From assembly GCA_016280845.1 (NCBI GenBank), contig JAEEHO010000185.1, positions 1 through 50,668 on the forward strand: a DNA stretch of 50,668 nucleotides, in the 5' to 3' direction. Shown here piece after piece: positions 9,901 to 43,237 of the stretch. Below the pieces are notes generated by a model. It had not been told where the DNA came from and made no database searches. It saw nothing but the letters and a program-made list of their open reading frames with translations. This DNA comes from Paludibacteraceae bacterium. GTDB lineage: Bacteria > Bacteroidota > Bacteroidia > Bacteroidales > Paludibacteraceae. The position numbers and the translations under genes were made by a program. The number at the start of each line of letters is the position of its first letter. Positions within the stretch are counted from its first letter, which is position 1.

Positions 9901-12900
9901 TCAAGGGTATCTGTTATGGCTTTACGGATTGCCATTACTGTACCATCCTCGATGACAGCGTATCCACCTGCCTTACGGTAAATCTCAGCCACGTCTACTG
10001 CAGAGTTCCAGCGTACATCCATGCCGTTGTAGAGCAAGAAGTCTTTTATAACTCTGTCTGATCCGGTTACGGATGCACCTGAGTTGAAGCCAATGAAGCG
10101 AAGCCTCTTATTGGAATCAGTAGCACGCTGAGTGATAACATTCATGTAGCTCTGAATGTTCTGCAAGTACTCATCTTTAGAAGTTCCGGGGAACTGTTTA
10201 GCAACCTGCTGATACTGCTCAGTAGCTTCCATACTGCTGAGGTTATACAGACGTGTTGACTGAGAATCATGCAATACGAAAGGAGCTGCGGCATTTCTAA
10301 AGGTTGTTGTCTCTCCGTCGACTCTAAAGCTTATCATGCAAGGATCAGCATTGCGCACGGTACTGTCACAGCTGTAGAACACATCAATGTATTCAGGGTC
10401 AGGCTCGATGTAACCTTTAGCGAATCCTTCTATAGCAGCTACGTTGTCAGCAGTATTAAGAGTGTTGCATCCTGCTTTCCAAAGAGGAGCGACACCTTTA
10501 TCAGACACCTGACGTAAGTACTCGGTAGCATCATCTATGATAGAGTCAACAATGTTTTCGATGTACTTAGAGTTACGTGTCTGTGCATACGCCTTAGCGT
10601 AGGAATTAATCTTGTATGTCTTGTCACCTGCAAATGCATCAAGAACTGCATTGATTTGGTCCTCAGGACACTGGTTCAAAGTTGCAGCTGTCTCGAAGCT
10701 GTTGAAGAACTTCTGAGTACTTCTCTGCTCTGCACAGGTGTTCAGGAAGTCCTGAATCTGCGCATGGTATTCATCCAACTTGTCTACAGCTGTAGTGATA
10801 TACTCAGGAATCTCGTGCTCATATTGTGCTGCAAGCTCAAGGAGCTCATGCTTACGGTCGCTGAGAAGCGCATCGACATTCTTAAATGCATTGTTTACAG
10901 CACTGTTGATATCCAAGGCATCCTTTACAACAGTGCGCATAGCCTCATCTGAGGTGTATAACAATGCTCCCTGATACTTCTGCAAGGTAACATTGAAGAA
11001 CTTGCCAAGCTGTTCTGTCTCAAGCTCGCCCTCTGCATTGAAGAGCACCTGCTTGATGTGCTTGTGGTCTGTCAGCAACTGCTCCTTAATAACGTCTGCA
11101 GAAACATTTAAACCATGGTGTCTCTGCAGCTCCTTACGGAAACCTCTTGCTAAGTTGTTTAGAGCTGCAAGACGGTTCTCTGTACCCTTAGGAGCAATAG
11201 CATCAATGTATTCCTGATAAGGACGGTGCACATAACCTTTATATGCGATGACATCCCTATAGTTTTCCAAGTCCTGTAAATACTTCTCAGTATTCTCAGT
11301 GAAGGCTCTGATGCGCTCAATAAGAGTGTTCTCGACCCTAGGACTAGATAAGTTATCACCATATTCTTTAACGGCCTCTATGAGGCGATTTGAAGCTAAC
11401 TCATAAGCCTCAGGAGTAATAGACCTTGCGATGTTAGCATTGAAACCATCACGCATAGTCTGAACCAAAGTGTGAAGGTTCTCTAAGGAATTGATGACAT
11501 CGCCTCGTTTATAGGCTGCTGCTTCAAAGAACTTAGCGATATCTCCGGACATACGCCTGTAGATACCGATTGTACGCTCTGTACCTAAGAGGTTCTTAGA
11601 TGCGATGACGTTGTTGTACATTCTGCGGTAGTTCATGTATACCGCTTTCAAGTCGGGGCAAACGCCTTCAAAGAAAGGCTGGTTGTGTACGAGCGCATCA
11701 TTGAGGGCCTTGAAGTCATCGAAGCCAAGGCTTCTAGCGTGTTCATCAAGCTCCTCAATAACTTTAAATGCATCTGCACCCTCATCAACCTTGTGCATGA
11801 TTGCACGAATAGGTCCGAGAGTATCTTCTGTAAGATACTTTACAGTAGCATCCATGGCTCCCTGCTGGAACTGCTTGTAGAAATTTGCAGCACTTTCAGA
11901 CATCTTATCAGACGCAAAGAGGACAGACATCTCCTTCCTTAAATCTGCAAACGCATCTGCAAGTGCAGGAGAGTATGCCTTGTGAGTCTCACAGATGTCT
12001 GTGATACGTTTATTTATAGATTCCTGCGCAAAGGCTGCCTTCTTAGCGATGTTGATATCCTGAATGTAGCCGAGGAGTTTCTTAGTCCAGCGTACAGAGC
12101 CTACTACAGCAGCAAGCTGAGGAGCACCTGTAACAAGGATGAACTTGTTCAGCGCTCCGGTAATCTCACTAATGCTGTGTAAGGACTCAACGATTCCGGG
12201 AGTCTTATAGATTACTGAAGCCAGTGCGTTTCCGCTTTCCTTAGTAATCTTAGCAGCGTTCTCTACGCTGTACTTGATATAGTTCTGAGTGAACTTTGTG
12301 ATAGTTTCTCTATACGCGCCCTTGGAGGCAACGTTAAGGACATCCATCTTACCGAGATACTCTCTCATAAGTTTGGATGTAGTGTTTGCGGGTAAGCCGC
12401 GGCCTACCTGTTTAGCAAGCTTAGCGTACCACTTAGGGTCGAACATGTTCAGCATGTAGCCGAGACGAGCATTGGCAACGGCTTCTCGCATGAGCTTCTC
12501 ACCGCCACCGGACTCGATTGCATTCTTGACTGCACGTGCGTAAGCTTTGCCTATTGCAGCTTCTGTATCTGCATTACGTAAAATTGCAAGCTCTCCTGCA
12601 GCTGCATGGTCGCCAAGTATCTTTCTTAAGGAAGAAGGATTGACACCATCGGACTTGATGACACGCACACCTGCCTGATTAATTAAATCAAATGTGTCAT
12701 CAATATATTTTGTTGCAGTAGAATCTACAACTTTAGCGGCCTCTAAAGATGTCAGGCCTGACTTATAGATATCTATCCATGAGCCGGGGTCTAACAAGAT
12801 ATCCATGAAGGTAGTGAGCACACGAGCATAAGCACCACGCTCTTCGGGTGCATAAGTATTGATGTAGTCAAAGTTAGGTGTATCACCGTATGCACCGAGC

Positions 12901-15038
12901 CACATCTTGAATGCTACAGCACCTGCATAGCCTTCAGCATCAATCCAAAACTTTTGTGCCTCAGGTGAGAGCTTAGCATACTCTTCATCTGCAATCTTAC
13001 GAAGACGTGCCGCACGTACAGGGTCATCATAGTTACCATAGCGGTACTCATTACTTCCTGCACCAAGATACTTGAATACGTTGGTTGCATCTGCGGTTTC
13101 TCCTAAGCTGCCGAGAGAACTGAACAATGCATTCAGAGCAACTGTAGAAAGAGGGACACCCTGCTGAATCTGTGTAATGGGGCCTGTAACGAGACGAGCA
13201 GCGTACTCAGTAAGGTCTTTGTTGAGTGTAGACCCCTCGAATTGGTCAAAGAATGCACGTCCAATCGCACGCTTAGCAACATCTAACAAGGAGTTAACCT
13301 GAGTGGAGCTGTCCATATTGAGGTATAAGTCTGCCTCTTTATTGTAGCGCTCGACGCCCTCAGTAAGCTCACGAATGTAATCATCAATGCTGAGGCGGTA
13401 ATCCTCATTCATATAGATAGGCTTGTTGCGGTTAGCACGCATTCTGATAGAGAGCTCTCGGTACTGGGCCTTGTATTCTTCGGGAACTGTAAGCGATCCA
13501 AAAGCATCAGTAAGCATGGTGCGGTCGACTTTATCGCCCTTGCCACTCTTGATTCTATCTTCAGCTTCTATATAGCCTTTAAGTGCATAGTAAGTAGACA
13601 CTTCATCTCCGGTCATTCCGGAAGCTCTAAGTGCCTTAGTAGCCGCAGTGTACTCTTCAAGGACTGCGGAATATTCTGCGGTGTAATTAGCATACGCCTT
13701 TTCACGAGTCTCAACTAATCTCTGATAACGCTCAAAGACTTTCTGATACTCTGCAAACTCTTCGTTTGTAAGAGGGCGCTGCTTATCAAGTTCTATAAAC
13801 TCTCTGAGCTGGTCTTCTACAGCAGTCAGCTTACGGTTGATAACATTGGTAGGACTGTTGAGGTCGTACTCTCTGTCACGGGACATCTGCTGTAACTGTG
13901 CAGCATAGCTGTCTACGATTTTACGCTGTTCATCAACGCTGTCGCTCTGCGCATATCTGTATAAGCGTCCGGTAACAGTGTCATACAGCACGTACTTATC
14001 TTCTGCACCGATGCCTGCCAAGCGGTCACGGCCTATTGTGGCGTACTGCTGAGGGATATTTGATGCAGACATGGAGAACTTCGTATGCTGAATAGCATCT
14101 CCGTCCTCAATAACCCACAACTGCATTGTGCCGTTAGTGAGGCCATTAGTAACCTGCTGGTATGTGGTAGAGGTAACAGTGTTAACATTCCACTTGGTGT
14201 TACCCTTTACATTACTACCTGAACGGTTCACATCATAGGTATCACGGATATCATTATCTGAGTAACGCTTCTTGGTTGCATCCTGCAATGTGCTCAACAG
14301 TGCAGCCATGTCAGCTTTCTGACTGGAATGTAATCCTGCAAGCCCATTGAGCTTCTCATTACGCAGCATCCATGTGTATGTTTCAGGGAAACGCCTAGCA
14401 TTCTCTTCAACTGTACGTGCAAAGTCAGGCTTTACTTCAACATCAGGAAGGTTGTTCATGTACTGCACAAACCAATTATCAGCATACGCTGTACGAGGTG
14501 CAGGCATGGTTGAACTAGGGACATACGAAGTAAGCGCTGAGGTAATTCCTGAAAGCGCACCTATATTTCCTGCTGTTGACGTAGTGCTTGCAATCCTGCT
14601 TACAATCTTAGGTGTGGCGGGAACAACAGTAGGAAGCACTACAGGCTGCGCTGCTGGTTTAGGCGCAGGAGTAGGTGAATGTGTAGATGTAGAGTGTGAG
14701 GATGTACCCGATGAGCCCGACGAACCTCCGGATGAACTAGGTCTAGCCGCTTGTGCACCTGCTACAGCTGCTTGGGTGGCAGCAGACGTAGCAGGCTTAG
14801 GGGCTGGAGAGCTAGAATGTGAGGTATTTGTCTGCGTCGAGGGTTTGGACGTAGATGACGAGCTTGAGTGCGAAGTGTTTGAGTGCGTCGAAGGCTTAGA
14901 CGCAGGCTTCGACGAAGATGAGGAGCTGGATGGCTTCTTAGCAGCGGCAGCACCCGCAGCTGCACCTGCAGCGGCACCCGAAGATTTCTTCTTGCCGCCT
15001 GCATCGTTGACCATGGTGTTGACTTTACTAAGTGCCAT
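3960..15038 (-). CDS. Giant protein of 3692 aa with unknown function. It is a candidate virion internal/ejection protein.
   Basis: It is one uninterrupted ORF at the distal end of the late arm. It has an N-terminal Ser/Ala/Pro/Thr low-complexity region, a long mostly helical body, C-terminal repeats of about 70 aa and a basic Tyr/Arg/Lys tail. I could not recognise any catalytic motif. Confidence 0.85.
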   Translation of the reverse strand: MALSKVNTMVNDAGGKKKSSGAAAGAAAGAAAAKKPSSSSSSSKPASKPSTHSNTSHSSSSSTSKPSTQTNTSHSSSPAPKPATSAATQAAVAGAQAARPSSSGGSSGSSGTSSHSTSTHSPTPAPKPAAQPVVLPTVVPATPKIVSRIASTTSTAGNIGALSGITSALTSYVPSSTMPAPRTAYADNWFVQYMNNLPDVEVKPDFARTVEENARRFPETYTWMLRNEKLNGLAGLHSSQKADMAALLSTLQDATKKRYSDNDIRDTYDVNRSGSNVKGNTKWNVNTVTSTTYQQVTNGLTNGTMQLWVIEDGDAIQHTKFSMSASNIPQQYATIGRDRLAGIGAEDKYVLYDTVTGRLYRYAQSDSVDEQRKIVDSYAAQLQQMSRDREYDLNSPTNVINRKLTAVEDQLREFIELDKQRPLTNEEFAEYQKVFERYQRLVETREKAYANYTAEYSAVLEEYTAATKALRASGMTGDEVSTYYALKGYIEAEDRIKSGKGDKVDRTMLTDAFGSLTVPEEYKAQYRELSIRMRANRNKPIYMNEDYRLSIDDYIRELTEGVERYNKEADLYLNMDSSTQVNSLLDVAKRAIGRAFFDQFEGSTLNKDLTEYAARLVTGPITQIQQGVPLSTVALNALFSSLGSLGETADATNVFKYLGAGSNEYRYGNYDDPVRAARLRKIADEEYAKLSPEAQKFWIDAEGYAGAVAFKMWLGAYGDTPNFDYINTYAPEERGAYARVLTTFMDILLDPGSWIDIYKSGLTSLEAAKVVDSTATKYIDDTFDLINQAGVRVIKSDGVNPSSLRKILGDHAAAGELAILRNADTEAAIGKAYARAVKNAIESGGGEKLMREAVANARLGYMLNMFDPKWYAKLAKQVGRGLPANTTSKLMREYLGKMDVLNVASKGAYRETITKFTQNYIKYSVENAAKITKESGNALASVIYKTPGIVESLHSISEITGALNKFILVTGAPQLAAVVGSVRWTKKLLGYIQDINIAKKAAFAQESINKRITDICETHKAYSPALADAFADLRKEMSVLFASDKMSESAANFYKQFQQGAMDATVKYLTEDTLGPIRAIMHKVDEGADAFKVIEELDEHARSLGFDDFKALNDALVHNQPFFEGVCPDLKAVYMNYRRMYNNVIASKNLLGTERTIGIYRRMSGDIAKFFEAAAYKRGDVINSLENLHTLVQTMRDGFNANIARSITPEAYELASNRLIEAVKEYGDNLSSPRVENTLIERIRAFTENTEKYLQDLENYRDVIAYKGYVHRPYQEYIDAIAPKGTENRLAALNNLARGFRKELQRHHGLNVSADVIKEQLLTDHKHIKQVLFNAEGELETEQLGKFFNVTLQKYQGALLYTSDEAMRTVVKDALDINSAVNNAFKNVDALLSDRKHELLELAAQYEHEIPEYITTAVDKLDEYHAQIQDFLNTCAEQRSTQKFFNSFETAATLNQCPEDQINAVLDAFAGDKTYKINSYAKAYAQTRNSKYIENIVDSIIDDATEYLRQVSDKGVAPLWKAGCNTLNTADNVAAIEGFAKGYIEPDPEYIDVFYSCDSTVRNADPCMISFRVDGETTTFRNAAAPFVLHDSQSTRLYNLSSMEATEQYQQVAKQFPGTSKDEYLQNIQSYMNVITQRATDSNKRLRFIGFNSGASVTGSDRVIKDFLLYNGMDVRWNSAVDVAEIYRKAGGYAVIEDGTVMAIRKAITDTLDDAQLDVLLNNTAGRIVMDTDPKIAKQLKGLTDIINGTAPQTMPALSDFFKAGEEVVHAVEHSRTAIVGDALETVISEKRISDFIDIASKGRDKLHRVNSMRALYNAVNGQFNPIQLKKTFDTALMEEWFSEGTLKNLVTSSMTSAEITERMDTIYELSKRFNSTFELIENPELLDHIGADAYKEVYEALVVQVSSHPRTAGLRDMPIWANLELNTAAEYYSAIMVLRKKYANLVDLDTLFQLSGTLRANEIVKSDHFKDALCTIYDECAAELVYNSAHSIHRYATTTALIENKYAGFNNRVVSTRAIMDEYKKIADSAESLGTYLDLKEAAYQQGRWLTHDNRINYELYSEVHRPFTDLVDALNEATPSKLKFAEGSIDGYYNYIIKHDYDKQMAAKLKSLSQVNTAHKRAAVETLCMLSDEDFEKHLVRDCMNMMLIDPKCVALQGEAGILFGKRMADLTKNTRDIRLERVVIGNHEYISIYKDLSGYTPKQLDDLINSVDEFSVPVQSYKGAFNSYVPMEGGSDFMSYARKKVGEYLDKMSEYMPSRYLMSNFEVLTSETVQNLQQYFPEASRIAPGRINNWFNESYNCSIIGDIDTQRLFNPYASDKLIDNMARGLHHVQDKMEATTNYLRLFSNPSQSLRSMLNYAGVKKPDWKTIKQQLDVRGYTLVTLTLDKKGRYNAVQRALTNQEQLTRYLADDSVVVMERSVLGKVNEYILSQRKLMDYEKCHASALKGALSDIFVAWKNTTRAARILGLLFLSNIQGSAFRNRLDSTLKAVNEAGLDVLDYMGVALEYQQGYKDIVGQIVEKYKVLTVDTIDKYFKEFPDATLPQDLFEQLYVFNNQASTGMSALLDITKDTEIAKMRSLLPAGTKYTDDQLKEIADLFNRVSATGSYQKHILNPHYAYMPGKLRDKIQSQMYDECYQGILHMTQKGTKTPIYTPAEAKELANLFYTYTPSAHTASDWLQKLPVIGTMLDTNIQRGSLRRLIGNAQAFQDAETRTRTAMFLHYMEEGKTASYAEQHIVKSQFDYSKVGLIGHLETALPFSTFKIYNAAYWLAAAGEKFSTLKMITRFSKYTSRFYDTEDIAARIRDTHVAEWLADPNNGVKADEETPDATDGIMGWFAENIFGYQGVNELYAEGLRLGDNHYVKVGNSFTEAIQLCIDVMMAPEYIKRGQLPPILMDSVYTPLGVLFKFLADRDKNDFFNPTDRSYRDATSPVSGDFVNWAADRYYDILNLIPAFGMLANLVLTHIKNGAVNIADLKMMLCDENLKDAYMHKIFQATCDGLGTFFPSIVGTINDDKKGYYDREIGLNWYDNTNIEAIMQRINPETGKRYTKEEAEAFAKAYKGSHQFVAGISSLPAFMLKDPATYINYKYMFMRMGFGEKDVEENMGKLLDQLYGDGTYLNGIYINNGKNNDTYINIALLEDTFAALAAKGYDIDEVILQLQNQRWVNPATGELLKNSDLHKMLAQSAFLSAYEHLPDYVKYDKEQYAALIAYWKANGLTTEQAWMMMQSEYGYIDERGRYRILTEEQAKAYSQQLNDDYYEFLDQMPDWCKYEPGAASRTMNYFIGLGMSMEDAQRYILAHNAYVDVYGQLHQYSDEEVAQKNAQSQKEFYEYYNTLPDYIKYEKGAYGRTLKYLKSIPGMTDELARLFIRRGAYLTVDGRLINCTDMEQESNYTSKWVDYEKPLGYASFNDYYQTLPNYLKYEKGAFSRAYHILKSLGFAYNDILALIKQGAYAMEAGTAQSLFNTLPKDRAGIAVTDINTLLQKYGGVLIEYNGKYYTLLNCTGLNRSRSYRRTYNSSANRYTKRSYTKWNRKKYTRRPSSYIPNKFARPKNQRAVRHYYRSPYTQQPYVTKGSYSSTYSKVNLFAGASYGARQIYKIDIGRSPVRQALSTKSVYPAAYRNIVFAYRRSLYKDMYAKYGASRMRMRANVAHSYSNASIVRLRRNEIQYRVKYATKRSDPVVRKNKK
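4620..5800 (-). repeat. Tandem protein-level repeats of about 70 aa inside the giant ORF (at least 4 clear copies plus degenerate ones).
   Basis: The repeated core reads EHLPDYVKYDKEQYAAL / QMPDWCKYEPGAASRT / NTLPDYIKYEKGAYGRT / QTLPNYLKYEKGAFSRA. Each copy is followed by a ..G(L/M/F)..(E/D)......GAY...G pattern. Copies are spaced about 210-240 nt apart. Confidence 0.8.
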
Positions 15039-35206: not shown

Positions 35207-35524
35207 ATGATAGCAATCACTCTTAACAATCTCTTCGCAGCAACCATCATCCTTGTTTGCCTCATCGCACTCGTACTGGATATCATGGCATACGTAGCAG
35301 CAACCCATTCAATCGAAGCGCCTCAGAACGCTGAAGCCGAACTCCCTACATGGTGCTTACCGCCTAAGGTAAACAGAGAGCTTGTAGAGGACTTTGACCT
35401 CAACGAGATGCCTATCGCCTTCTTAGAACTCCTCACACTTGATAAAGCAGACGGTACTACACGACCTGCGCAATATCTCATAGAGGACGGAGAAATCACA
35501 GGAGTGATTATTGATGAAGACTAA
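35207..35524 (+). CDS. Small membrane protein (105 aa).
   Basis: TAAGGAGG lies upstream. The N-terminal TM segment is LFAATIILVCLIALVLDIMAYVAA. Confidence 0.55.
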   Translation: MIAITLNNLFAATIILVCLIALVLDIMAYVAATHSIEAPQNAEAELPTWCLPPKVNRELVEDFDLNEMPIAFLELLTLDKADGTTRPAQYLIEDGEITGVIIDED

Positions 35525-36029
35525 CTTCTATAACCAAGAGAAAGAATTCGTACCTATTAAAGGATACGAGCATGAGTATAAGATTAATCCTCACGGACAG
35601 ATACTCAGTCTACTCACTGACCAATACGTGACTACCTCAGTAGATTCCAAAGGCTATCTGATAGTACGCTTATATAAAGATGGACACTGCAAAGTCAAAC
35701 GTGTCCATATCCTTACAGCAGAAACCTTCATACCCAATCCTCAGAACTTACCCGTCGTAAACCATATTGACGGTAATAAGCAAAACCCGGATGTAACCAA
35801 CCTAGAATGGACTACGTTCTCAGAAAACACCTTACACGCACACAGAACAGGACTCATAACAAAAACTAACAATCAAAAGGTTGTTCGTGGCGATGGTAGG
35901 GTGTACGCCAGTGTGACAGAAGCAGCAAAAGACAACAACATCAGCAAGTCAGCAATAAGCAAAGTCATATCCGGCGAACGTAGAACCGCAGGTGGATACA
36001 CTTGGAGAAAGGAGAATGAAGATGGCTAA
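35511..36029 (+). CDS. Free-standing HNH homing endonuclease (NUMOD4 / HNH_3 / NUMOD1-like).
   Basis: Motifs are PIKGYEHEYKINPHGQILS, GYLIVRLYKDG, VHILTAETFIPNPQNLPVVNHIDGNKQNPDVTNLEWTTFSENTLHA and a C-terminal HTH-like ISKSAISKV. Confidence 0.85.
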   Translation: MMKTNFYNQEKEFVPIKGYEHEYKINPHGQILSLLTDQYVTTSVDSKGYLIVRLYKDGHCKVKRVHILTAETFIPNPQNLPVVNHIDGNKQNPDVTNLEWTTFSENTLHAHRTGLITKTNNQKVVRGDGRVYASVTEAAKDNNISKSAISKVISGERRTAGGYTWRKENEDG

Positions 36030-36481: not shown

Positions 36482-36922
36482 ATGGAAATTTACGTAAACA
36501 ACAACGTCGTTGTAGTAACAACAGAGATCCCCGCGGCTGTCATTGAGGATGCAGGTACAGACGGACACGCACTTCTTGACGAGAAGGGCAACACACTTTA
36601 CACAGTTAAGCTCACAAAGGGCTGTAAATCAGCAGACTTCAGCAAATTCGGCTTCTGCGGTAACGCAGTTATCGATGGCAAGGTTGCAGCAGTAATCATT
36701 GAGCCTATCGGAACAACTCTCAAGGCTATCAAGAAGAAATACGGTCAGGCAGCAATCGCAGCTAAGCAGTTCATGCCCGTTATGCTCTCAGCAATCAATG
36801 CTTCAGCAGAGGCAGTTACACAGGCATTCACACCTTCTGCAGACCTCATTTTCTCACAGGCTGCTACAGAGGAAGTTACAGCTGAAGAGACAGCTGATGA
36901 CGAAGCTGACACTGAGGAATAA
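36482..36922 (+). CDS. Hypothetical protein with an acidic C-terminal tail (146 aa; start revised from 36437).
   Basis: The ATG at 36482 is preceded by TAAGGAGGA. The C-terminus is EEVTAEETADDEADTEE. Confidence 0.55.
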   Translation: MEIYVNNNVVVVTTEIPAAVIEDAGTDGHALLDEKGNTLYTVKLTKGCKSADFSKFGFCGNAVIDGKVAAVIIEPIGTTLKAIKKKYGQAAIAAKQFMPVMLSAINASAEAVTQAFTPSADLIFSQAATEEVTAEETADDEADTEE

Positions 36923-37000: not shown

Positions 37001-37237
37001 ATGATTAAATTGACTATTGGTACTAACACAGAGCGTAAAACCGTTATGGTTAACCCTAAGGACAACGCAAAAAACGTCCTCACTCAACAGGGTATCAACA
37101 TCGACCGTACAGCAATGCACTTGAACGGTTCACTTATTCCCGCTGTTGACCTCAACAACACCTTTGAAGGCCTCGGCATCGCAGATGAATCCGAAGCAAT
37201 GATTATCGCAGTTGTTAAGGCAGACTCAGCACAGTAA
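37001..37237 (+). CDS. Candidate ubiquitin-like (beta-grasp, ThiS/MoaD-like) small protein of 78 aa, with no C-terminal GG.
   Basis: The ATG at 37001 is preceded by GGAGGA. Translation is MIKLTIGTNTERKTVMVNP...AMHLNGSLIP...FEGLGIADESEAMIIAVVKADSAQ. The size, strand/helix pattern and genomic neighbours (JAB and E1-like) support the call. Confidence 0.35.
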   Translation: MIKLTIGTNTERKTVMVNPKDNAKNVLTQQGINIDRTAMHLNGSLIPAVDLNNTFEGLGIADESEAMIIAVVKADSAQ

Positions 37238-37247
37238 GCAATGTATT

Positions 37248-37280
37248 GGGCACTTCTATCTTAGAGGTGCCCTTTTTATT
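37248..37280 (+). terminator. Intrinsic terminator/attenuator between the Ubl-like gene and the enzyme genes.
   Basis: The sequence is GGGCACTTCTA-tct-TAGAGGTGCCC followed by TTTTTATT. The RBS of the next gene follows immediately. Confidence 0.6.
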
Positions 37281-37294
37281 AAGGAGACTTTACT

Positions 37295-38818
37295 ATGGCT
37301 TGGAAACGAATCGCAACAAATCTTTCACCTATTTTTCAGACAGCATGTGCCCGAGCATACAACCGAGTATCAACAATCCTGTACAAATCTCGTATCCCCT
37401 TTACTACATATGATGTACAGGATGCATTCTCATGGTTGATGTTTCCAATTTATGAAGGCGCTACTGAATTACAGTTTGAGATAGACGCACAGGTAAGAGT
37501 AAAATCTTACGTACTTCCCAAAGACGTGCCTATCGAAACTACCGCTGACCGATTTGTAAACAATTACATTGTGAACGATTCTCGAAACCGCTCACGCAGA
37601 CATGTTATCATTATAAACACATCCACAAACAAAGCGCTTGAAGAACAAATCTGCGCTAAACTTGATGCGTTCACACAACGCGAAAGAGCACCACGTGAAT
37701 CATTCTATCAAGTTTCTACTATCCCAGTTCCGGCATTAACGCTAACACCTGTACACCGTGTGCGCTGTTACGATAAAATATTCGTTAATGATGAAGGCGA
37801 AGTATTTGTCACAAACATCATCTTAACAAATCTTTACGGAACTGAGATCTGCTCACGCATAAGTGCAGCCTTACTAGCACAGTGTACAAGATATAAAGAG
37901 TTCGTAAACAACGATGAAATCTTTGCAGCCCTTGTAAAAGGATATGCCGAAGCAGATGCAGAAATAGTCAACAACTGCGTACATCAGATATACGATGCTA
38001 AACTAAATGAGCTCAACGCTGCACGTATGGCAGAAGCTGTCAAAACAATCACAACCTTAGCCACAAAAGACATTACAAAAGCTGCTGAACAAACAGTAGT
38101 AGAGGCACAGCGTCGTGTACAAAACATTGAAGAAGATTACAAAGACGCACTAGGTAGACTCCGCAATGCGCAGCTCAATCTCTTAGAAGCTATGACATTA
38201 GGAACAACCGAACGTGAGCAACAGATTGCAGACTTCTTAACCAGCATCACACCTAACATAACCCATCTTCAGAAAGGTGACAACAATGCCATCTACTTAT
38301 CATACAAGACACCGTTATTATACTTTGAACCTAAGCACATGGAACTGATGCTCAACTCGTCTCGCCCTAATCCTTGTAACACTGCTCACCCTAGTATCAG
38401 AAGCCTGTTAAAAGAAGTATTTATAGATAAGACTTATCAATTCATCTTTGACACAGGTGTTGACATCGACTTACGTTACAATGATATCTACTACTGGGCT
38501 CCACCGACCAACATTGTTCTTCAGGGTATCCCTAATCCTCATCATAAGTACTACAACTGTTGGGGAGACAACAAGCCTTACATCAAGAAAGCACTCGTCG
38601 CTCATGATATGATAGCTGCAATCACACAGATAATCGCTGCATTCAGTGGCATGAACTTAACTGATACCGCAGTAGTTCGTAGGTTTGTAGAAGAAGAACT
38701 CATGACAGATTCTTACAAACGTATCCCTTGTCTCAAGAAATTAGCAACCGGAGAACTCTTTACTATTGAACAGTATTGTAACAATTACACCGCAGCACAG
38801 GAGGCTAACAATGCATAG
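37295..38818 (+). CDS. 507-aa protein with an unknown N-domain, a central coiled coil and a C-terminal domain with an E2/UBC-like Cys motif (tentative).
   Basis: AAGGAGA lies upstream. The C-terminal sequence YQFIFDTGVDIDLRYNDIYYWAPPTNIVLQGIPNPHHKYYNCWGDNKPYIKKALVAHDMIAAITQIIAAF resembles the beta-meander, HPN-like flap, Cys and helix layout of E2 folds. Confidence 0.3.
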   Translation: MAWKRIATNLSPIFQTACARAYNRVSTILYKSRIPFTTYDVQDAFSWLMFPIYEGATELQFEIDAQVRVKSYVLPKDVPIETTADRFVNNYIVNDSRNRSRRHVIIINTSTNKALEEQICAKLDAFTQRERAPRESFYQVSTIPVPALTLTPVHRVRCYDKIFVNDEGEVFVTNIILTNLYGTEICSRISAALLAQCTRYKEFVNNDEIFAALVKGYAEADAEIVNNCVHQIYDAKLNELNAARMAEAVKTITTLATKDITKAAEQTVVEAQRRVQNIEEDYKDALGRLRNAQLNLLEAMTLGTTEREQQIADFLTSITPNITHLQKGDNNAIYLSYKTPLLYFEPKHMELMLNSSRPNPCNTAHPSIRSLLKEVFIDKTYQFIFDTGVDIDLRYNDIYYWAPPTNIVLQGIPNPHHKYYNCWGDNKPYIKKALVAHDMIAAITQIIAAFSGMNLTDTAVVRRFVEEELMTDSYKRIPCLKKLATGELFTIEQYCNNYTAAQEANNA

Positions 38819-39608
38819 TATAAGATTAAATGAGAAGAGCCTTGAAGAAATGATAGACCTTTTAAAGGAACAGTTTCAGAAGGCTAACAACACCACAGAC
38901 AAGATTTCATTTACCTATAAATTTTCACATCCCGCAGAAGAGAAGGTGTGCTTAAAAATTGAAGAAGCAGCATGGAGAAAAATCAACGCACTCGTGGCAA
39001 CCTGCGATAAAGAAGTCGCATGGCACTGCACCGCTACTAAGACTGATAGTTCGTACATTATTGAAGATGTGTTCGTCTTTCCTCAGATAATCAGTGCAGC
39101 AACCGTAACCACAGACGATACAGAATACGCTAAGTGGTTAATGGCTCTGCCCGATAATGTATTCAACAAGCTCAGAGTACACGGACACTCACACGTAAAC
39201 ATGGGCGTAACACCTTCCGGAACAGATACCACCTATCAGGAAAATATCCTCACAAACGTTAAAGACTTCTTTATCTTCATGATACAGAATAAGAAAGGTG
39301 ATATCTGGAAAGCCATCTTTGACGTAGAAGCAAACGTAGTCTACGAAAATGAAGACATCCTCGTAATTACTCCGGATGTAACTGCAAATGTATGGGCTGC
39401 AGCACAGATAGAAACCTATGCAAAACCTGCAGTTATGCCTACAATAATACAGCAGCCTACAGTAACAGCAGCAAGCACTAAACCTAAAGCTGTTGTAAAA
39501 GAAAAAGGAAAAAGAGGCCGTTCGCCTAAAACAAAGACTGAACATGATTATGAACAGCTGTACATGCGTCAGTACTACGGTTACGGCTATCCTGAAGACT
39601 GGGATTAA
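38811..39608 (+). CDS. JAB/MPN (JAMM) metalloprotease-domain protein (start revised from 38766).
   Basis: The ATG at 38811 is preceded by AGGAGG and overlaps the upstream stop. The complete JAMM motif HGHSHVNMGVTPSGTD (HxHx7Sx2D) is present, with an upstream Glu (KEVAWHC). Confidence 0.8.
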   Translation: MHSIRLNEKSLEEMIDLLKEQFQKANNTTDKISFTYKFSHPAEEKVCLKIEEAAWRKINALVATCDKEVAWHCTATKTDSSYIIEDVFVFPQIISAATVTTDDTEYAKWLMALPDNVFNKLRVHGHSHVNMGVTPSGTDTTYQENILTNVKDFFIFMIQNKKGDIWKAIFDVEANVVYENEDILVITPDVTANVWAAAQIETYAKPAVMPTIIQQPTVTAASTKPKAVVKEKGKRGRSPKTKTEHDYEQLYMRQYYGYGYPEDWD

Positions 39609-39621
39609 ATAAGGAGGCAAT

Positions 39622-40338
39622 ATGGACACTTCAAAAGTTTTAGAATATTTCGACCCCTCAGAATACAGATTCGCATACAATGTCATCGGTTGCGGAGCGA
39701 TCGGTTCCCACGTGTGCGAACAGCTTACACGCTTAGGTATCACTGAAGTCCACATCTATGACTTCGATACCGTAGAAGCACACAATATCACCAATCAGAT
39801 GTTCTGCGACAGTGACATCGGAATGAGCAAAGTCGATGCTTGTGAAGCTGCAATGAAAGCAATCAACCCGGAAATTACGGTTTACAAACATCCCGAAGGA
39901 CTTACTCCTCCGTATGTAATCAACGGAATTTGCATCTTATGTGTAGATAACATCGACCTTAGACGTGAAATCGTAAAAGCTAATCAGTTCAATCCAAACT
40001 GCGCTGCCTTCTTAGATTTCAGAATGCGTTTAGTAGATGCACAGCACTACTTTGCAGATGCAAAGAACCGCTTTGAAGTAACAGAACTTCTGAACACCAT
40101 GGCCTTCACACATGAAGAAGCCATGGACGCAACACCTAAGAGTGCGTGCGGTGTAGAACTCAGTGTAGTCTACACAGTCAAAGCAATCGTATCTTTTGGA
40201 ATGGCAAACATGGTTAAATGGTTGATGTCGAGAGATGACTATAGAACCATGATGCAGGTAAACATGGACAGTTTCATAGTCGATGCTTTCAGAGCAAGAC
40301 CCAGACCTACTGTCAACATTGCAGCCGACACGAAGTAA
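39622..40338 (+). CDS. ThiF/MoeB/E1-like adenylyltransferase-domain protein.
   Basis: TAAGGAGG lies upstream. The Rossmann loop is VIGCGAIGSHVCEQLTRLGI. Other motifs are YDFDTVEAHNITNQMF (the NxxNQ equivalent of the NRQ motif) and ILCVDNIDLRREI. Confidence 0.75.
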   Translation: MDTSKVLEYFDPSEYRFAYNVIGCGAIGSHVCEQLTRLGITEVHIYDFDTVEAHNITNQMFCDSDIGMSKVDACEAAMKAINPEITVYKHPEGLTPPYVINGICILCVDNIDLRREIVKANQFNPNCAAFLDFRMRLVDAQHYFADAKNRFEVTELLNTMAFTHEEAMDATPKSACGVELSVVYTVKAIVSFGMANMVKWLMSRDDYRTMMQVNMDSFIVDAFRARPRPTVNIAADTK

Positions 40339-40434
40339 GGCATACTTTTTACTAAGGTGGGGTACAGGTAATCTTTTAAGTACCACTCCTAAATAAAATT
40401 TAAAGCCACCCCCCGGTCATAGAAAGGAGACACT

Positions 40435-41505
40435 ATGTACATAAATTACTACAGTCGCTGCAGATACATGCCTAATGCTACCCCGGAACAACTTGAGAAA
40501 GAAAAAGAACGCAACCTCGGACGTATCGTAACCAAACATATTGGCAGTATGCAAATGTCAGAAAAACAATGGATCGCAATCTGTAAACTACAAGCTATCC
40601 TACATGACTATTGCATCGGACGTGTGTTTGCATTAGCCGTAGATGTTGAAAGATCATGGCAGACAGAATGTTACGATATGAGTTCACGCTATATTCAATT
40701 TGACATTCCTAAACGGAGAGGTGGCACTAGACATCTCTGTGCACCTGATGAAGAATTGATGCAACTCCAGAAACGAGTACTCCACGTACTGACTAAAGAG
40801 CTGCACATCCTACCTCATAATGCTGCACACGGTTTCACCCCACATCGTAACTGCAAGACAGCATTAGAGTATCATCGTAAGCATCACGCACGTTGGTTCT
40901 TAAAGTTAGATATCAAAGACTTCTTCCCAAGCACCACAGCTAACATGGTGTATCGTGCAATACGCGATAATGCCATACTACACCGATTAAACGATACATC
41001 TATAAATCGACTAATCAACTTCTGTGTACTTGACGAAACTTTACCTCAGGGTGCGCCAACGTCACCGTTCTTAACGAACCTTGTGATGCAGCCTTTCGAT
41101 GAAGCTATTACAACGTACTGTAAAGTAAATCATCTGTGTTACACAAGATATGCAGATGACATCCTGATTACGAGCCCTACTACCTTTGAAATAGCCCCAG
41201 TCATCAATGATATAAAGAATATTCTTTTTGGCTTCTACACCATTAACGATGAGAAAACAAGATACGGCAGTTTCAACGGAAGAAACTGGAACCTCGGGCT
41301 TATGTATAATAATAAGTTTGAGATTACCGTAGGCCATGCCAAAAAGAAACTTGTTAAGAATCTCATACACAACTTTTTTACAAAACCTGAATGTCACACA
41401 GTTCAGAATTGGTTACACCTCATGGGTGTCGTCGGCTACTGCGCTTATATTGAACCGGAGTACTTCAACAAGTACCTCGAACAACTCAAGGCAGCAGAAC
41501 TATAA
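40435..41505 (+). CDS. Reverse transcriptase, retron-type/retron-like, with no accessory domains.
   Basis: GAAAGGAGA lies upstream. Motifs are YIQFDIPKRRGGTRHLCAP, AAHGFTPHRNCKTAL, FLKLDIKDFFPST, LPQGAPTSPFLTNLVM, YTRYADDILITS and INDEKTRYG. Confidence 0.9.
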   Translation: MYINYYSRCRYMPNATPEQLEKEKERNLGRIVTKHIGSMQMSEKQWIAICKLQAILHDYCIGRVFALAVDVERSWQTECYDMSSRYIQFDIPKRRGGTRHLCAPDEELMQLQKRVLHVLTKELHILPHNAAHGFTPHRNCKTALEYHRKHHARWFLKLDIKDFFPSTTANMVYRAIRDNAILHRLNDTSINRLINFCVLDETLPQGAPTSPFLTNLVMQPFDEAITTYCKVNHLCYTRYADDILITSPTTFEIAPVINDIKNILFGFYTINDEKTRYGSFNGRNWNLGLMYNNKFEITVGHAKKKLVKNLIHNFFTKPECHTVQNWLHLMGVVGYCAYIEPEYFNKYLEQLKAAEL

Positions 41506-41507
41506 AA

Positions 41508-41692
41508 TGCGCTAGAAGATTACCTTGTATTACGATACAAGCCTCTGAATCAATTTCAGAGTGTCATGATAAGCAGATGTTTCTGCACTAGACCTGAGGT
41601 CCCCTGCAGCGCCTCCAGCCGCGGAAGGACACGCGGAGGAGGCGACTGCCAGGGTCGCTCAGGTCTACGTACAGTAATAAAATGGTAGCGCA
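41508..41692 (+). ncRNA. Retron-like msr/msd module 1 (a1 - G - two short hairpins - 77-nt GC-rich hairpin - a2).
   Basis: The a1 arm TGCGCTA (41508-41514) pairs with the a2 arm TAGCGCA (41686-41692), and a G follows a1 at 41515. Short hairpins lie at 41524-41541 and 41543-41561. The long hairpin lies at 41590-41666, closed by AGACCTGAG/CTCAGGTCT. Confidence 0.45.
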
Positions 41693-41805
41693 TAAAGGCA
41701 AGATAACACCTTGCCTGCTTACCAGACATTTTGATAACGACTATCCCATAAAGTCTCCTTTCAAAATGTCAACCCTTATAAGTTTAATCACTTCACTTAG
41801 AAGCC

Positions 41806-41843
41806 CCTTTAACTAGGTTAAAGGTATCCGCCTGTTTTTTTTT
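41806..41843 (+). terminator. Hairpin plus T9 tract ending the RT-proximal structured RNA region.
   Basis: The hairpin CCTTTAAC-tag-GTTAAAGG is followed by 10 nt and then TTTTTTTTT (41835-41843). Hairpins at 41696-41716 and 41725-41770 precede it. Confidence 0.35.
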
Positions 41844-41893
41844 CATCGCATTAATATTGTTATAAGGGACTAAATACACAAGGAGGAATCGCA

Positions 41894-42370
41894 ATGCGAC
41901 GTGCAGAATACGAAGCAATGAAGAAATCGTTACAAGCTAAGTTAGCAGCACTTGAATCTGAGCCAATCGAAGAAGACTATAATCGTTGGACTCCTGAGAC
42001 AGGTGAAACTTACTATCAGCTTGGCGATGAAGGAGATGTTTTTGAGAACCGTTGGAACGACAACCTCACAGATCAGTACCTCTACAACTTAGGCAACTGC
42101 TTCAGAACTAAAGAAGCAGCAGCATTCGCAGCTGAAACTCTCAAAGTTATAGCAGAGCTCAGAAACTTTGCAGACCCTGCAAATGTTTGGGATGGTAAAA
42201 CACGTCATTACTATCTCGCATATAACTATGACAGAGATGCAATACTTATCTTAGGCGAACAGGGCGTTCGTACACATGACATCTACTTCAGCTCTATAAA
42301 AGTTGCAAATAAAGCAATTACAGAAATCGGAGAAGGTAGAATTAAGAAATACTATTTAGGTATTCTTTAA
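41894..42370 (+). CDS. Hypothetical 158-aa protein flanked by structured RNA modules.
   Basis: AAGGAGGA lies upstream. No motif was recognised. The sequence includes WTPETGETYYQLGDEGDVFENRW...GNCFRTKEAA. Confidence 0.6.
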   Translation: MRRAEYEAMKKSLQAKLAALESEPIEEDYNRWTPETGETYYQLGDEGDVFENRWNDNLTDQYLYNLGNCFRTKEAAAFAAETLKVIAELRNFADPANVWDGKTRHYYLAYNYDRDAILILGEQGVRTHDIYFSSIKVANKAITEIGEGRIKKYYLGIL

Positions 42371-42379
42371 ATTAAGTGA

Positions 42380-42518
42380 CGCTTTAGAAGGTTACATTAC
42401 CGCAACATGGCTGCTAACTAAGTTAGCACACACGCAATGTTATAAATGCATTCATCCGTACATGCAGCTCGTCTCCGTAGGAGACATTGAGCTGCAGTAC
42501 GACGCTTAAAGTAAAGCG
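42380..42518 (+). ncRNA. Retron-like module 2 (shorter).
   Basis: The a1 arm CGCTTTA (42380-42386) is followed by G and pairs with TAAAGCG (42512-42518). Hairpins lie at 42412-42428 (TGCTAAC-taa-GTTAGCA) and 42463-42496 (nested 8+6 bp). The 5' word GCTTTAGAAGGTTAC resembles GCGCTAGAAGATTAC of module 1. Confidence 0.35.
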
Positions 42519-42529
42519 CACACATATGC

Positions 42530-42742
42530 CACACTTTAGTAAAGTTTATTCTGAATGAATACCCATTCAGATGTACTAACTAAGTTGGTACAAACACAAA
42601 GTCTTGAACACATGGCAGATCCGGAAGCCTCACTCCCTGAACGAGCCCAGAATGACGACGAATAAAATGCTATTCGTCGACATTCATGGGACCGTTCAGG
42701 AGTTCAGGTTCCGGATCTGCCACGGTATTAAAGTAAAGTGTG
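42530..42742 (+). ncRNA. Retron-like module 3 (a1 - G - two short hairpins - 108-nt hairpin - a2).
   Basis: The a1 arm CACACTTTA (42530-42538) is followed by G and pairs with TAAAGTGTG (42734-42742). Short hairpins lie at 42550-42571 and 42573-42591 (GTACTAAC-taa-GTTGGTAC). The long imperfect hairpin lies at 42614-42721, closed by GGCAGATCCGGAA/TTCCGGATCTGCC. Confidence 0.45.
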
Positions 42743-42766: not shown

Positions 42767-43237
42767 ATGACTTACGATCCTTATCCAACTAAGTGTAATA
42801 TCTGTGGCGGTCACGTCTCACTTACGACAACATTCATGATCTACGGACGTAACTATGGTACAGGATTGGTTTACAGTTGTGATAAGTGTGGTGCTAGGGT
42901 GGGCACATACCCGAGATTACCTGAGGAAAGAAAGAAAAAGAAACCACCGCGTGCAACCGGAATACTTGCAGATGAATACACACGTAACTTACGTATGAGG
43001 GCTCACGGTTATTTTGATAGCTTGTGGAGCGGTAAACGCAACAGTCTCAAAGTACGCGCACATTGTTATTGGACTCTTGCAGGTATCTTAGGTGTCCCCG
43101 AACCTCAAGCACACTTCGCTATGATGAACCGTGAAGAACTTAAGGATGCTCTCAGAACAATGCACGACCATTGGGATTATATGCTCGAAGACGCTAGTAA
43201 CTTTGAACAAATGACCTTAGGAAAGGAGAAGAAATGA
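42767..43237 (+). CDS. DUF3268-like zinc-finger protein.
   Basis: TAGGAGG lies upstream. Motifs are CNICGG...YSCDKCGARVGTYP, then GILADEYTRNLRMRAHGYFDSLW...CYWTLAGILG. Confidence 0.6.
   Translation: MTYDPYPTKCNICGGHVSLTTTFMIYGRNYGTGLVYSCDKCGARVGTYPRLPEERKKKKPPRATGILADEYTRNLRMRAHGYFDSLWSGKRNSLKVRAHCYWTLAGILGVPEPQAHFAMMNREELKDALRTMHDHWDYMLEDASNFEQMTLGKEKK

Follow-up and report, generated by a model that had tools for sequence, protein, structure and literature searches.

Why would a phage encode a ubiquitin-type set of enzymes directly ahead of a retron-like reverse transcriptase (RT) with its own structured RNAs, and do the two form one system? The question is raised by contig JAEEHO010000185.1 (NCBI GenBank assembly GCA_016280845.1, Paludibacteraceae bacterium), of which all 50,668 nucleotides, hereafter the window, were analyzed. 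The window is an apparently complete phage genome of ~50.7 kb, with genes for a family-A DNA polymerase, a primase-helicase, a large terminase, a portal, and a major head protein, without tRNAs and without an integrase among the genes checked. On its plus strand, genes for a ubiquitin-like protein (Ubl), an orphan protein of 507 amino acids (p507), a JAB/JAMM metallopeptidase, and an E1-like adenylating enzyme lead into the RT gene, which is followed by an array of non-coding RNAs (ncRNAs). An original prediction, made from the sequence alone, took positions 37001 to 42742 for a possible single composite locus. The combination indeed recurs in 54 of 55 assessable clusters of E1 sequences, and in dozens of gut phages that are only distantly related to each other, which upholds the core of that idea, although the module starts earlier than predicted (at a gene that we call X) and its coupling to an RT is not absolute. 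We see about an even chance that the locus is one vertically inherited phage operon coupling the cassette to the RT–ncRNA unit, rather than two neighboring systems.

The census behind these numbers drew on an E1 alignment run against IMG/VR, on metagenomes scanned with p507 together with distant p507 relatives, and on RT scans; the E1 and p507 seeds are not biased towards an RT. Pooled, it comprises 103 loci in 59 E1 clusters, 55 of them assessable (L-numbers such as L001 or L171 label the related loci and phages compared). A retron-like RT adjoins the E1 gene in 51 clusters and an RT of the UG27 class in three, leaving one cluster (L197) with no adjoining RT. The association also holds when it is approached from the RT. 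Scanning IMG/VR with the RT as seed gave six loci with 36–51% RT identity, all six with the order Ubl–p507–JAB–E1–RT whole, and nine RTs of ≤31% identity from the same scan with none of the cassette. When 185,579 species genomes were scanned with an RT alignment, E1 was found upstream of every RT of this clade that had an upstream flank (31–46% identity), and JAB, p507, and Ubl were present as well where the flank was long enough; one locus (L101) begins too near its RT for an upstream cassette to be judged. Overall, RTs of the clade show ~31–53% identity (by tblastn, relative to the window or to whichever of three query relatives is closest). Retron RTs of other clades in the species genomes, mostly at 26–34% identity, have no cassette. 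The neighborhood check that had been proposed along with the composite locus, run from the RT and from E1/p507, thus shows RT and cassette co-occurring both ways.

The species-genome loci lie in metagenome-assembled genomes (MAGs) of Clostridia, Lachnospiraceae, Oscillospiraceae, Christensenella, and Rikenellaceae; an isolate locus, in Clostridiales Family XIII PM5-7 (L103), is a prophage with phage genes around it, and the cassette is also found on MAG contigs of 100–180 kb. The loci span ~50-kb phages with an SNF2 helicase gene as neighbor and 70–148-kb contigs without SNF2. Across them, the identities of RT, E1, and p507 between pairs of loci are correlated (rho 0.66–0.70), with RT identity reaching down to 24%, and among 16 lineages with an SNF2 identity of 33–62%, the identity of the helicase co-varies with that of E1 (rho 0.65) and of the RT (rho 0.76). 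Inheritance of the module is vertical, along with phage replication genes, and only phages and prophages carry it. Cassette and RT can also be tightly packed: the E1 and RT genes overlap or lie <40 nt apart in L030, L076, L018, L053, L059, L071, L199, and L201, and in L070 the RT and its RNA are even placed between JAB and E1.

The window itself has a similarly compact layout. ORF (open reading frame) layout and sequence reads bear out the predicted set of five co-oriented plus-strand genes (Ubl, p507, JAB, E1, and RT) with overlaps or gaps of ≤96 nt: 57 nt from Ubl to p507, an overlap of 8 nt between p507 and JAB, 13 nt from JAB to E1, and 96 nt from E1 to the RT (Table 1). The composite operon measures ~6 kb and stands in the block upstream of the SNF2 helicase gene. 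An attenuator had been proposed after the Ubl gene, and the 57-nt gap does contain, at 37248-37272, a terminator-like hairpin of 11 bp followed by a T-run; inspected by eye, most of 35 related loci have a comparable strong hairpin, often with a T-run, 3' of Ubl or of a Ubl-X fusion. Since X and Ubl are encoded ahead of it, both may be made in excess over the enzymes. The prediction also saw no convincing promoter between E1 and RT, in agreement with a scan that found no terminator-like or sigma-70-like site in the 96-nt gap (and that is blind to other promoter types). It further placed the start of the first RNA 2 nt past the RT stop, which the sequence matches: the stop codon (TAA) occupies 41503-41505, and the left arm ATGCGCTA begins at 41507, or at 41506 counting the preceding A.

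Table 1. Coordinates of the module and of the elements within it, numbered from the first letter of the window.
Feature	Position	Strand	Description
Gene X	36482..36922 (ORF opens 36437)	+	146 aa; sixth conserved module member; without known domain
Ubl-like protein	37001..37237 (ORF opens 36986)	+	78 aa; ATG at 37001 preceded by GGAGG
Terminator/attenuator-like element	37248..37281	+	11-bp G+C-rich hairpin (6 GC), then T-run, between Ubl and p507
p507	37295..38818	+	507 aa; orphan; in position of E2
JAB/JAMM metallopeptidase	38811..39608 (ORF opens 38766)	+	265 aa; conserved Met at 38811; variable Tyr/Gly-rich tail
E1-like adenylating enzyme	39622..40338	+	238 aa; minimal ThiF/MoeB size
Retron-like RT	40435..41505	+	356 aa; RVT_1; intact YADD box
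ncRNA unit A	41506..41693	+	a1 ATGCGCTA, G, two short hairpins, long hairpin 41589-41667, a2 TAGCGCAT
Structured spacer	41694..41850	+	three hairpins and T9 run (terminator-like); ~160 nt; 91% conserved in L171
p158	41894..42370	+	lineage-specific gene inserted between units A and M; not core module
ncRNA unit M	42376..42521	+	a1 GTGACGCTTTA, G, ends in a2 TAAAGCGCAC
ncRNA unit B	42530..42742	+	a1 CACACTTTA, G, two hairpins, long hairpin 42613-42722 (52-nt arms), a2 TAAAGTGTG

The ncRNAs downstream of the RT are real. Arranged in tandem, the three units (A, M, and B) share one order of elements, namely an a1 arm, a G, W-A-R, short stem-loops, a long hairpin, a UAUAAUrGU-like element, and the a2 arm. 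For the a1/a2 stem plus one stem-loop, 97% of the cells are paired in unit A, with eight two-sided changes versus 0–2 in slid controls, and 95% in unit B, again with eight such changes versus 0–1. The hairpin of unit M shows three compensatory pairs relative to L171, and the a1/a2 arms of its equivalents covary in L001, L173, and L179 (ACCTACAA, ACCTGTAA, and ACCCGCAA, each with a matching complement). Between the window and L171, the RNA regions are 91–92% identical and the p507 protein 85%, and the changes in the hairpins are compensatory. The A/M/B array also stands 3' of the RT in L001, L173, and L179, and L018 and L041 likewise carry two or three units in tandem. Retron-like closing stems that begin at the RT stop and are followed by a G are present in most subclades; counted manually, the G lies directly 3' of a1 in 18 of 27 loci with an RT-proximal inverted repeat of ≥8 nt. 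The units are too divergent in length to be aligned across subclades, and a strict automatic unit finder (perfect repeat plus motif), which misses most subclades, was left out of the statistics. No Rfam family matched anywhere in the window at gathering thresholds.

The UAUAAUrGU-like element is probably an RT recognition or initiation site. It lies directly 5' of every a2 in this subclade (units of the window, L001, L173, L179, and L018), in the window at 41672-41685, 42504-42511, and 42724-42733, and L040 and L041 carry GAUAAAUCAG at its position. The gene p158, which interrupts the array of the window, was found only in the close relative L171 and is absent from L001, L173, and L179, whose three RNA units adjoin; its product matched no family in Pfam, PADLOC, NCBIfam, or PHROG searches. 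If the T9 run of the spacer ahead of p158 acts as a terminator, transcription of units M and B may depend on read-through or on a promoter of their own.

Turning to the proteins, gene X is part of the module, which starts one gene earlier, at 36482. It has no Pfam or PADLOC match. A hidden Markov model (HMM) of X built from nine seeds matches an ORF adjoining the Ubl gene in >60 loci, X and Ubl are duplicated as a pair in L019, and at least nine loci encode a Ubl-X fusion (L037, L040, L048, L051, L055, L056, L059, L066, and L067). The junction of these fusions reads K-x-D-N-A-A; it is the likely JAB cleavage site and confirms that the mature Ubl does not end in glycine. The Ubl itself has a conserved N-terminus, MIxxT[IV]GTNT, and a conserved C-terminal tail, K-x-[DE]-[NS]-[ANS] plus 0–3 variable residues (e.g., KADSAQ, KADNA, KSENN, and KAENAVV). 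Compared by hhalign, it aligns weakly, yet over its full length and in register, with ubiquitin (62 columns, P=0.0023, probability 12.5%), and with ThiS over 34 columns without significance (E=0.055); its sole PDB profile match is a weak one to TtuB (E=1.6). The assignment as Ubl, already part of the original description, is weak; there is no Pfam match, the tail has no C-terminal Gly, and PADLOC gave no match either.

The original description of p507 as E2-like fared worse, as neither Foldseek nor hhalign demonstrates homology to E2 enzymes. In the protein, a coiled coil of 80 residues links an N-terminal alpha/beta domain to a C-terminal one, which holds Cys422 in the invariant motif G[IM]PNPHHxYYNCWGDN. 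AlphaFold2 models reach a pLDDT of 83 for the full length and of 91.6 for the C-terminal domain. Searched against PDB folds with Foldseek, neither of the two gave anything below E=0.1; UbcH7, TSG101-UEV, and a bacterial E2 (8tyz_C) are found only among the weak matches with TM ≤0.28, even though the order of secondary-structure elements fits the UBC fold. The C-terminal domain shows no similarity to UbcH5B by hhalign, a PDB sequence-profile search returned coiled-coil noise only, and Pfam, PADLOC, PHROG, and NCBIfam gave no family match save one weak, unrelated PADLOC match (E=0.0016). BFVD holds a single match, an uncharacterized gut siphovirus protein. The unannotated family is large, with 2151 representatives at E ≤1e-3 among 1.84 billion cluster representatives, or ~2000 clusters at 50% identity. 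Neither tblastn against GenBank phages nor a single-sequence scan of IMG/VR returned a match. A motif scan of 185,579 GTDB species genomes was also empty, because the pattern was too strict: the same scan missed p507-bearing MAG contigs later recovered with the RT query. From its invariant motif and operon position, a thioester-carrying role of p507 is plausible.

The two remaining enzymes of the cassette are easier to place. The E1 can be assigned securely, on sequence grounds, to the ThiF family of adenylating enzymes: it matches ThiF in Pfam (4e-21; 75.6 bits vs. a cutoff of 28.1), its best NCBIfam matches are ThiF, and UBA5 is its PDB profile match (7e-17). A GxGxxG ATP loop and an invariant SACG cysteine stand out in the alignment. 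PADLOC models of the "E1-E2" protein of CBASS (cyclic oligonucleotide-based antiphage signaling systems) match it at 1e-14, covering only the ATP-binding part. The JAB protein has no significant HMM match and no PADLOC match; its zinc-site motif, ExnHxHx7Sx2D (E83, H141-S-H143, S151, and D154), is invariant in seven divergent sequences and aligns to that of Rpn11 in a weak match (E=0.38). With the YADD box of the RT, the JAMM motif, GxGxxG and Cys of the E1, and the invariant Cys of p507 in place, the enzymes look active.

The RT falls among the retron and retron-like RTs, as a distinct clade that scores below the curated retron family cutoff. Its best PADLOC matches are all retron RT models (RT_II-A at 1.3e-53, then III-A and I-A), not the UG27 model, and its best NCBIfam match is retron_St85_RT (199.3 bits, 7.6e-59; under the 235-bit cutoff). 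A BLASTP comparison with the Ec86 RT gave 30% identity over 251 aa (1e-25). Mestre et al. named NAxxH and VTG as signature motifs of retron RTs. Both are kept only in part: NATPH of Ec86 corresponds to ALEYH, where only the invariant His (H147) remains, and in place of VTG stands NLG, which retains just the Gly, inside the signature block of the clade, GRNWNLGL. We therefore call the RT retron-like and not a textbook retron RT. GenBank phages hold only RT matches of ≤32% identity and no near DNA match. As a side observation, the first residues of the RT (40435-40449) are conserved in the family as M-x-Y-[ILV]-[TN] with an invariant Y2; such conservation is uncommon at an N-terminus and might have to do with regulation or modification.

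Three separate lineages (the L019 group, L181, and L202) have exchanged the RT for one of the UG27 class, with PADLOC scores of 1.6e-166 for L019 and 1.7e-117 for L202. In L019 the UG27 partners RTas346 and RTas337 are also present, and in L181 the RT ORF begins before the E1 gene has ended. Mestre et al. 2022 (bioRxiv 10.1101/2021.12.02.470933) described UG27 as an RT of gut phages that has an ncRNA downstream, no defense-island enrichment, and no known function, and made no mention of ubiquitin, ThiF, or JAB; UG27 systems occur in >1400 gut phage genomes, with no Ubl cassette reported. A general census of UG27 for adjacency to the cassette recovered only the L019 lineage. Either the cassette needs some RT, or both RT systems favor the same slot; we lean towards the former, given three replacements at one and the same junction. 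Two further observations concern the sequence between E1 and the UG27 RT. L019 has eight tandem small ORFs there (L019:7682-10028; 79–105 aa), a paralogous array in which all members end in a shared C-terminal tag, [KR][KR]KNN[YF][YW]; these proteins could be substrates of the cassette. L202 encodes a 192-aa protein (L202:4580-5158) with a weak Pfam match to ArdA (E=0.0025, under the cutoff), a faint hint of a counter-defense context.

Our best guess is that complementary DNA (cDNA) made by the RT gates or directs the activation or conjugation of the Ubl during phage infection. In such a scheme, JAB would trim the Ubl or Ubl-X precursor after the conserved K-x-D-N-A tail, upon which E1 would adenylate the exposed, non-glycine C-terminus. 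The invariant Cys of p507, or that of E1 itself, would then carry the Ubl onward to its target. Meanwhile, the RT would copy each ncRNA into a hairpin cDNA of the multicopy single-stranded DNA (msDNA) type, and the RT–cDNA complex might serve as a sensor or scaffold, licensing or directing the transfer of the Ubl. The last step follows the retron model, where the RT–msDNA holds an accessory effector in check. Given that the module co-diverges with replication genes and occurs in phages and prophages only, we favor a role in the phage's own cycle (host takeover, counter-defense, or exclusion of rivals) over one as sporadic host-defense cargo.

Several points weigh against one coupled operon working in this way. 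Besides L197, one further phage (L039/L073), outside the 55 clusters, has an E1 gene that runs straight into the SNF2 block without an RT, and the cassette can thus exist alone in two lineages. Many relatives have an A/C-rich non-coding gap of 230–450 nt between E1 and RT (e.g., L002:7427-7764, L003:7520-7752, L004:7350-7758, and L005:7468-7773) vs. 96 nt in the window, and a separate promoter, a leader, or another RNA could lie in these gaps of ~300 nt; no classic upstream retron ncRNA, that is, no a1-G...a2 unit, was seen in those of L002-type loci. In the window, the T9 terminator-like element and the inserted gene split the RNA array. The linkage within phage lineages is partly due to shared ancestry, and as UG27 is widespread without a reported Ubl cassette, its adjacency could reflect an accessory hot spot. 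On the side of the chemistry, the proposed Ubl is identified by its size and by the faint matches to ubiquitin and TtuB, its conserved tail has no Gly, so that the reaction could differ from protein ubiquitination, and E2 homology of p507 cannot be demonstrated. Every step of the scheme, from cDNA synthesis to the processing and conjugation of the Ubl, is a prediction.

What if cassette and RT are two independent accessory systems that occupy one conserved slot or hot spot of the early/replication region and are linked only by synteny? The cassettes without an RT would fit, as would the exchange of the RT class for UG27 (itself widespread in gut phages alone), the separate promoters that long non-coding gaps could carry, and the genes inserted between E1 and RT, namely the eight ORFs of L019 and, in one subclade, an extra conserved gene of ~250–290 aa (L049:7688-8554, L051:7684-8436, L055:7689-8450, and L056:7695-8459). 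However, the association is found in 54 of 55 assessable E1 clusters (54 of 56 with L039/L073), persists to 24% RT identity and across different phage backbones, and is never missing from the RT clade where upstream sequence is present. Gene overlaps, the RT inside the cassette of L070, and an RT that co-diverges with E1 and p507 as tightly as these do with each other also speak against mere neighbors, and we regard independence as unlikely. A classical abortive-infection retron serving the host or lysogen, with the RT–msDNA as antitoxin and the Ubl cassette as a toxin freed by a superinfecting phage, would account for the retron-like RT and ncRNA architecture, for a gene order as in the Bil defense system (Ubl-E2-DUB-E1, where DUB is a deubiquitinase), and for the prophage copies (L103 and the 100–180-kb MAG contigs). 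We doubt this explanation, though, since the window phage brings its own DNA polymerase, primase-helicase, and terminase with no integrase among the genes checked, since inheritance is vertical with replication genes and not sporadic, and since the related phage RT UG27 shows no defense-island enrichment; the empty p507 motif scan of species genomes points the same way, although, being too strict, it missed known p507 contigs.

The remaining two alternatives keep cassette and RT together and change the chemistry. JAMM proteases are known to trim or recycle Ubls that act as sulfur carriers (QbsD and Mec/CysO), and TtuB and Urm1 thiolate tRNA. By analogy, the activated Ubl might supply a group with which p507 and/or X modify the RNA template or the cDNA. 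The minimal ThiF/MoeB size of the E1 and its ThiF matches, TtuB as the only PDB profile match of the Ubl, Ubl-X fusions that recall MoaD-MoaE-type pairings, and a p507 that is not recognizably an E2 would all suit such a pathway. Yet sulfur carriers end in Gly-Gly and the tail here is K-x-D-N-A, the similarity to TtuB is not significant, and Pfam, PADLOC, and NCBIfam showed no rhodanese, cysteine desulfurase, or PP-loop ATPase in the module, leaving this reading rather improbable. Finally, the RT product could itself be the substrate, E1 and p507 joining the Ubl through its non-glycine tail to the cDNA or the RT–cDNA complex as a protein–DNA conjugate. This would explain why two unrelated RT classes fit one cassette, as the supply of a small structured cDNA is then what matters, and it would make cDNA as a substrate of Ubl machinery a new category of system, but we consider it a long shot. 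A coupled operon in which the cDNA gates or directs Ubl transfer remains the reading that we prefer.

Some neighboring genes deserve a brief mention. Upstream of the module lies an HNH/NUMOD-type homing-endonuclease-like gene (35511-36029; Pfam matches on the L171 orthologue), and unit B is followed by a DUF3268 zinc-finger gene (42767-43237; Pfam 4e-21). Elsewhere, a single ORF of 3692 aa on the minus strand (3960-15038), without an NCBIfam match, presumably encodes a giant virion or tail-associated protein.

The module links retrons, which are classified via their accessory effectors, with the bacterial Ubl-conjugation systems. To our knowledge, no described retron type uses ubiquitin-like chemistry, and we know of no case where the bacterial Ubl-conjugation systems (Bil, CBASS Cap2/3, and Bub) work with RTs. 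It offers an entry point to the roles of phage RTs, to the activation of a Ubl without a C-terminal Gly, and to the control of protein modification by cDNA; one of the two RT classes that it accepts, UG27, has been without a proposed function since 2022. In addition, a compact RT with several tandem template RNAs downstream could interest users of retrons for in-cell DNA production. The suggestion of the original prediction that the system may be undescribed agrees with the literature searched: neither a retron type nor a UG/DRT class came up that has Ubl/E1/JAB accessories, full texts yielded no paper that connects a retron or another RT with such a cassette, and the full-text index of a 2026 preprint that names UG27 74 times does not contain "ubiquitin".

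How, then, does the module compare with its closest known counterparts? Type II CBASS shares with it an E1 and a JAB protein (Cap2/Cap3) attached as regulators to a nucleic-acid or nucleotide polymerase-type enzyme, whereas here there is no CD-NTase (cGAS/DncV-like nucleotidyltransferase) and no E1-E2 fusion, and a dedicated Ubl is present. UG27 systems are likewise built around a phage-specific RT with a structured ncRNA downstream and a predicted non-defense role, but their RT is of a different class (19–25% identity), and they have accessory clusters of their own (346 and 337). Bil consists of the Ubl BilA, the E2 BilB, the JAB deubiquitinase BilC, and the E1 BilD (Hör et al., bioRxiv 10.1101/2023.09.04.556158) and matches the cassette by position, since here, too, a small Ubl comes first, p507 takes the place of the E2, and JAB and E1 follow, with JAMM and ThiF motifs intact. 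Unlike here, the C-terminal Gly of the Bil Ubl is fully conserved and, according to the same paper, which does not mention RTs, required. Further differences are a p507 for which E2 homology is not demonstrable, a minimal E1 of 238 aa, the X protein, the RT–ncRNA unit, and a location in phages vs. bacterial defense islands.

Retrons come closest in the nucleic-acid part of the module. They combine an RT, an msr-msd ncRNA, and an accessory effector and have been sorted into 13 types (Mestre et al. 2020, PMC7736814). Retron models are the nearest relatives of our RT, accessory genes lie in the same operon, and the ncRNA has the a1/a2 inverted repeats, the G directly after a1, the short stem-loops, and the long hairpin. 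The five-gene accessory set of X, Ubl, p507, JAB, and E1, on the other hand, occurs in none of the 13 types, and ubiquitin, ThiF, and JAB are not mentioned in that classification (PMC7736814). Compared with PADLOC, none of the accessory proteins matched a retron accessory; the only matches were those of the E1 (CBASS E1-E2) and the weak, unrelated one of p507. The ncRNA, which is upstream in the classic layout, here starts downstream, from the RT stop codon, with up to three tandem units per RT; NAxxH/VTG are kept only partly, the RT scores under the NCBIfam cutoff, and the system is restricted to phages. The system is thus retron-like, but novel in its accessory genes, in the arrangement of its ncRNAs, and in being hosted by phages.

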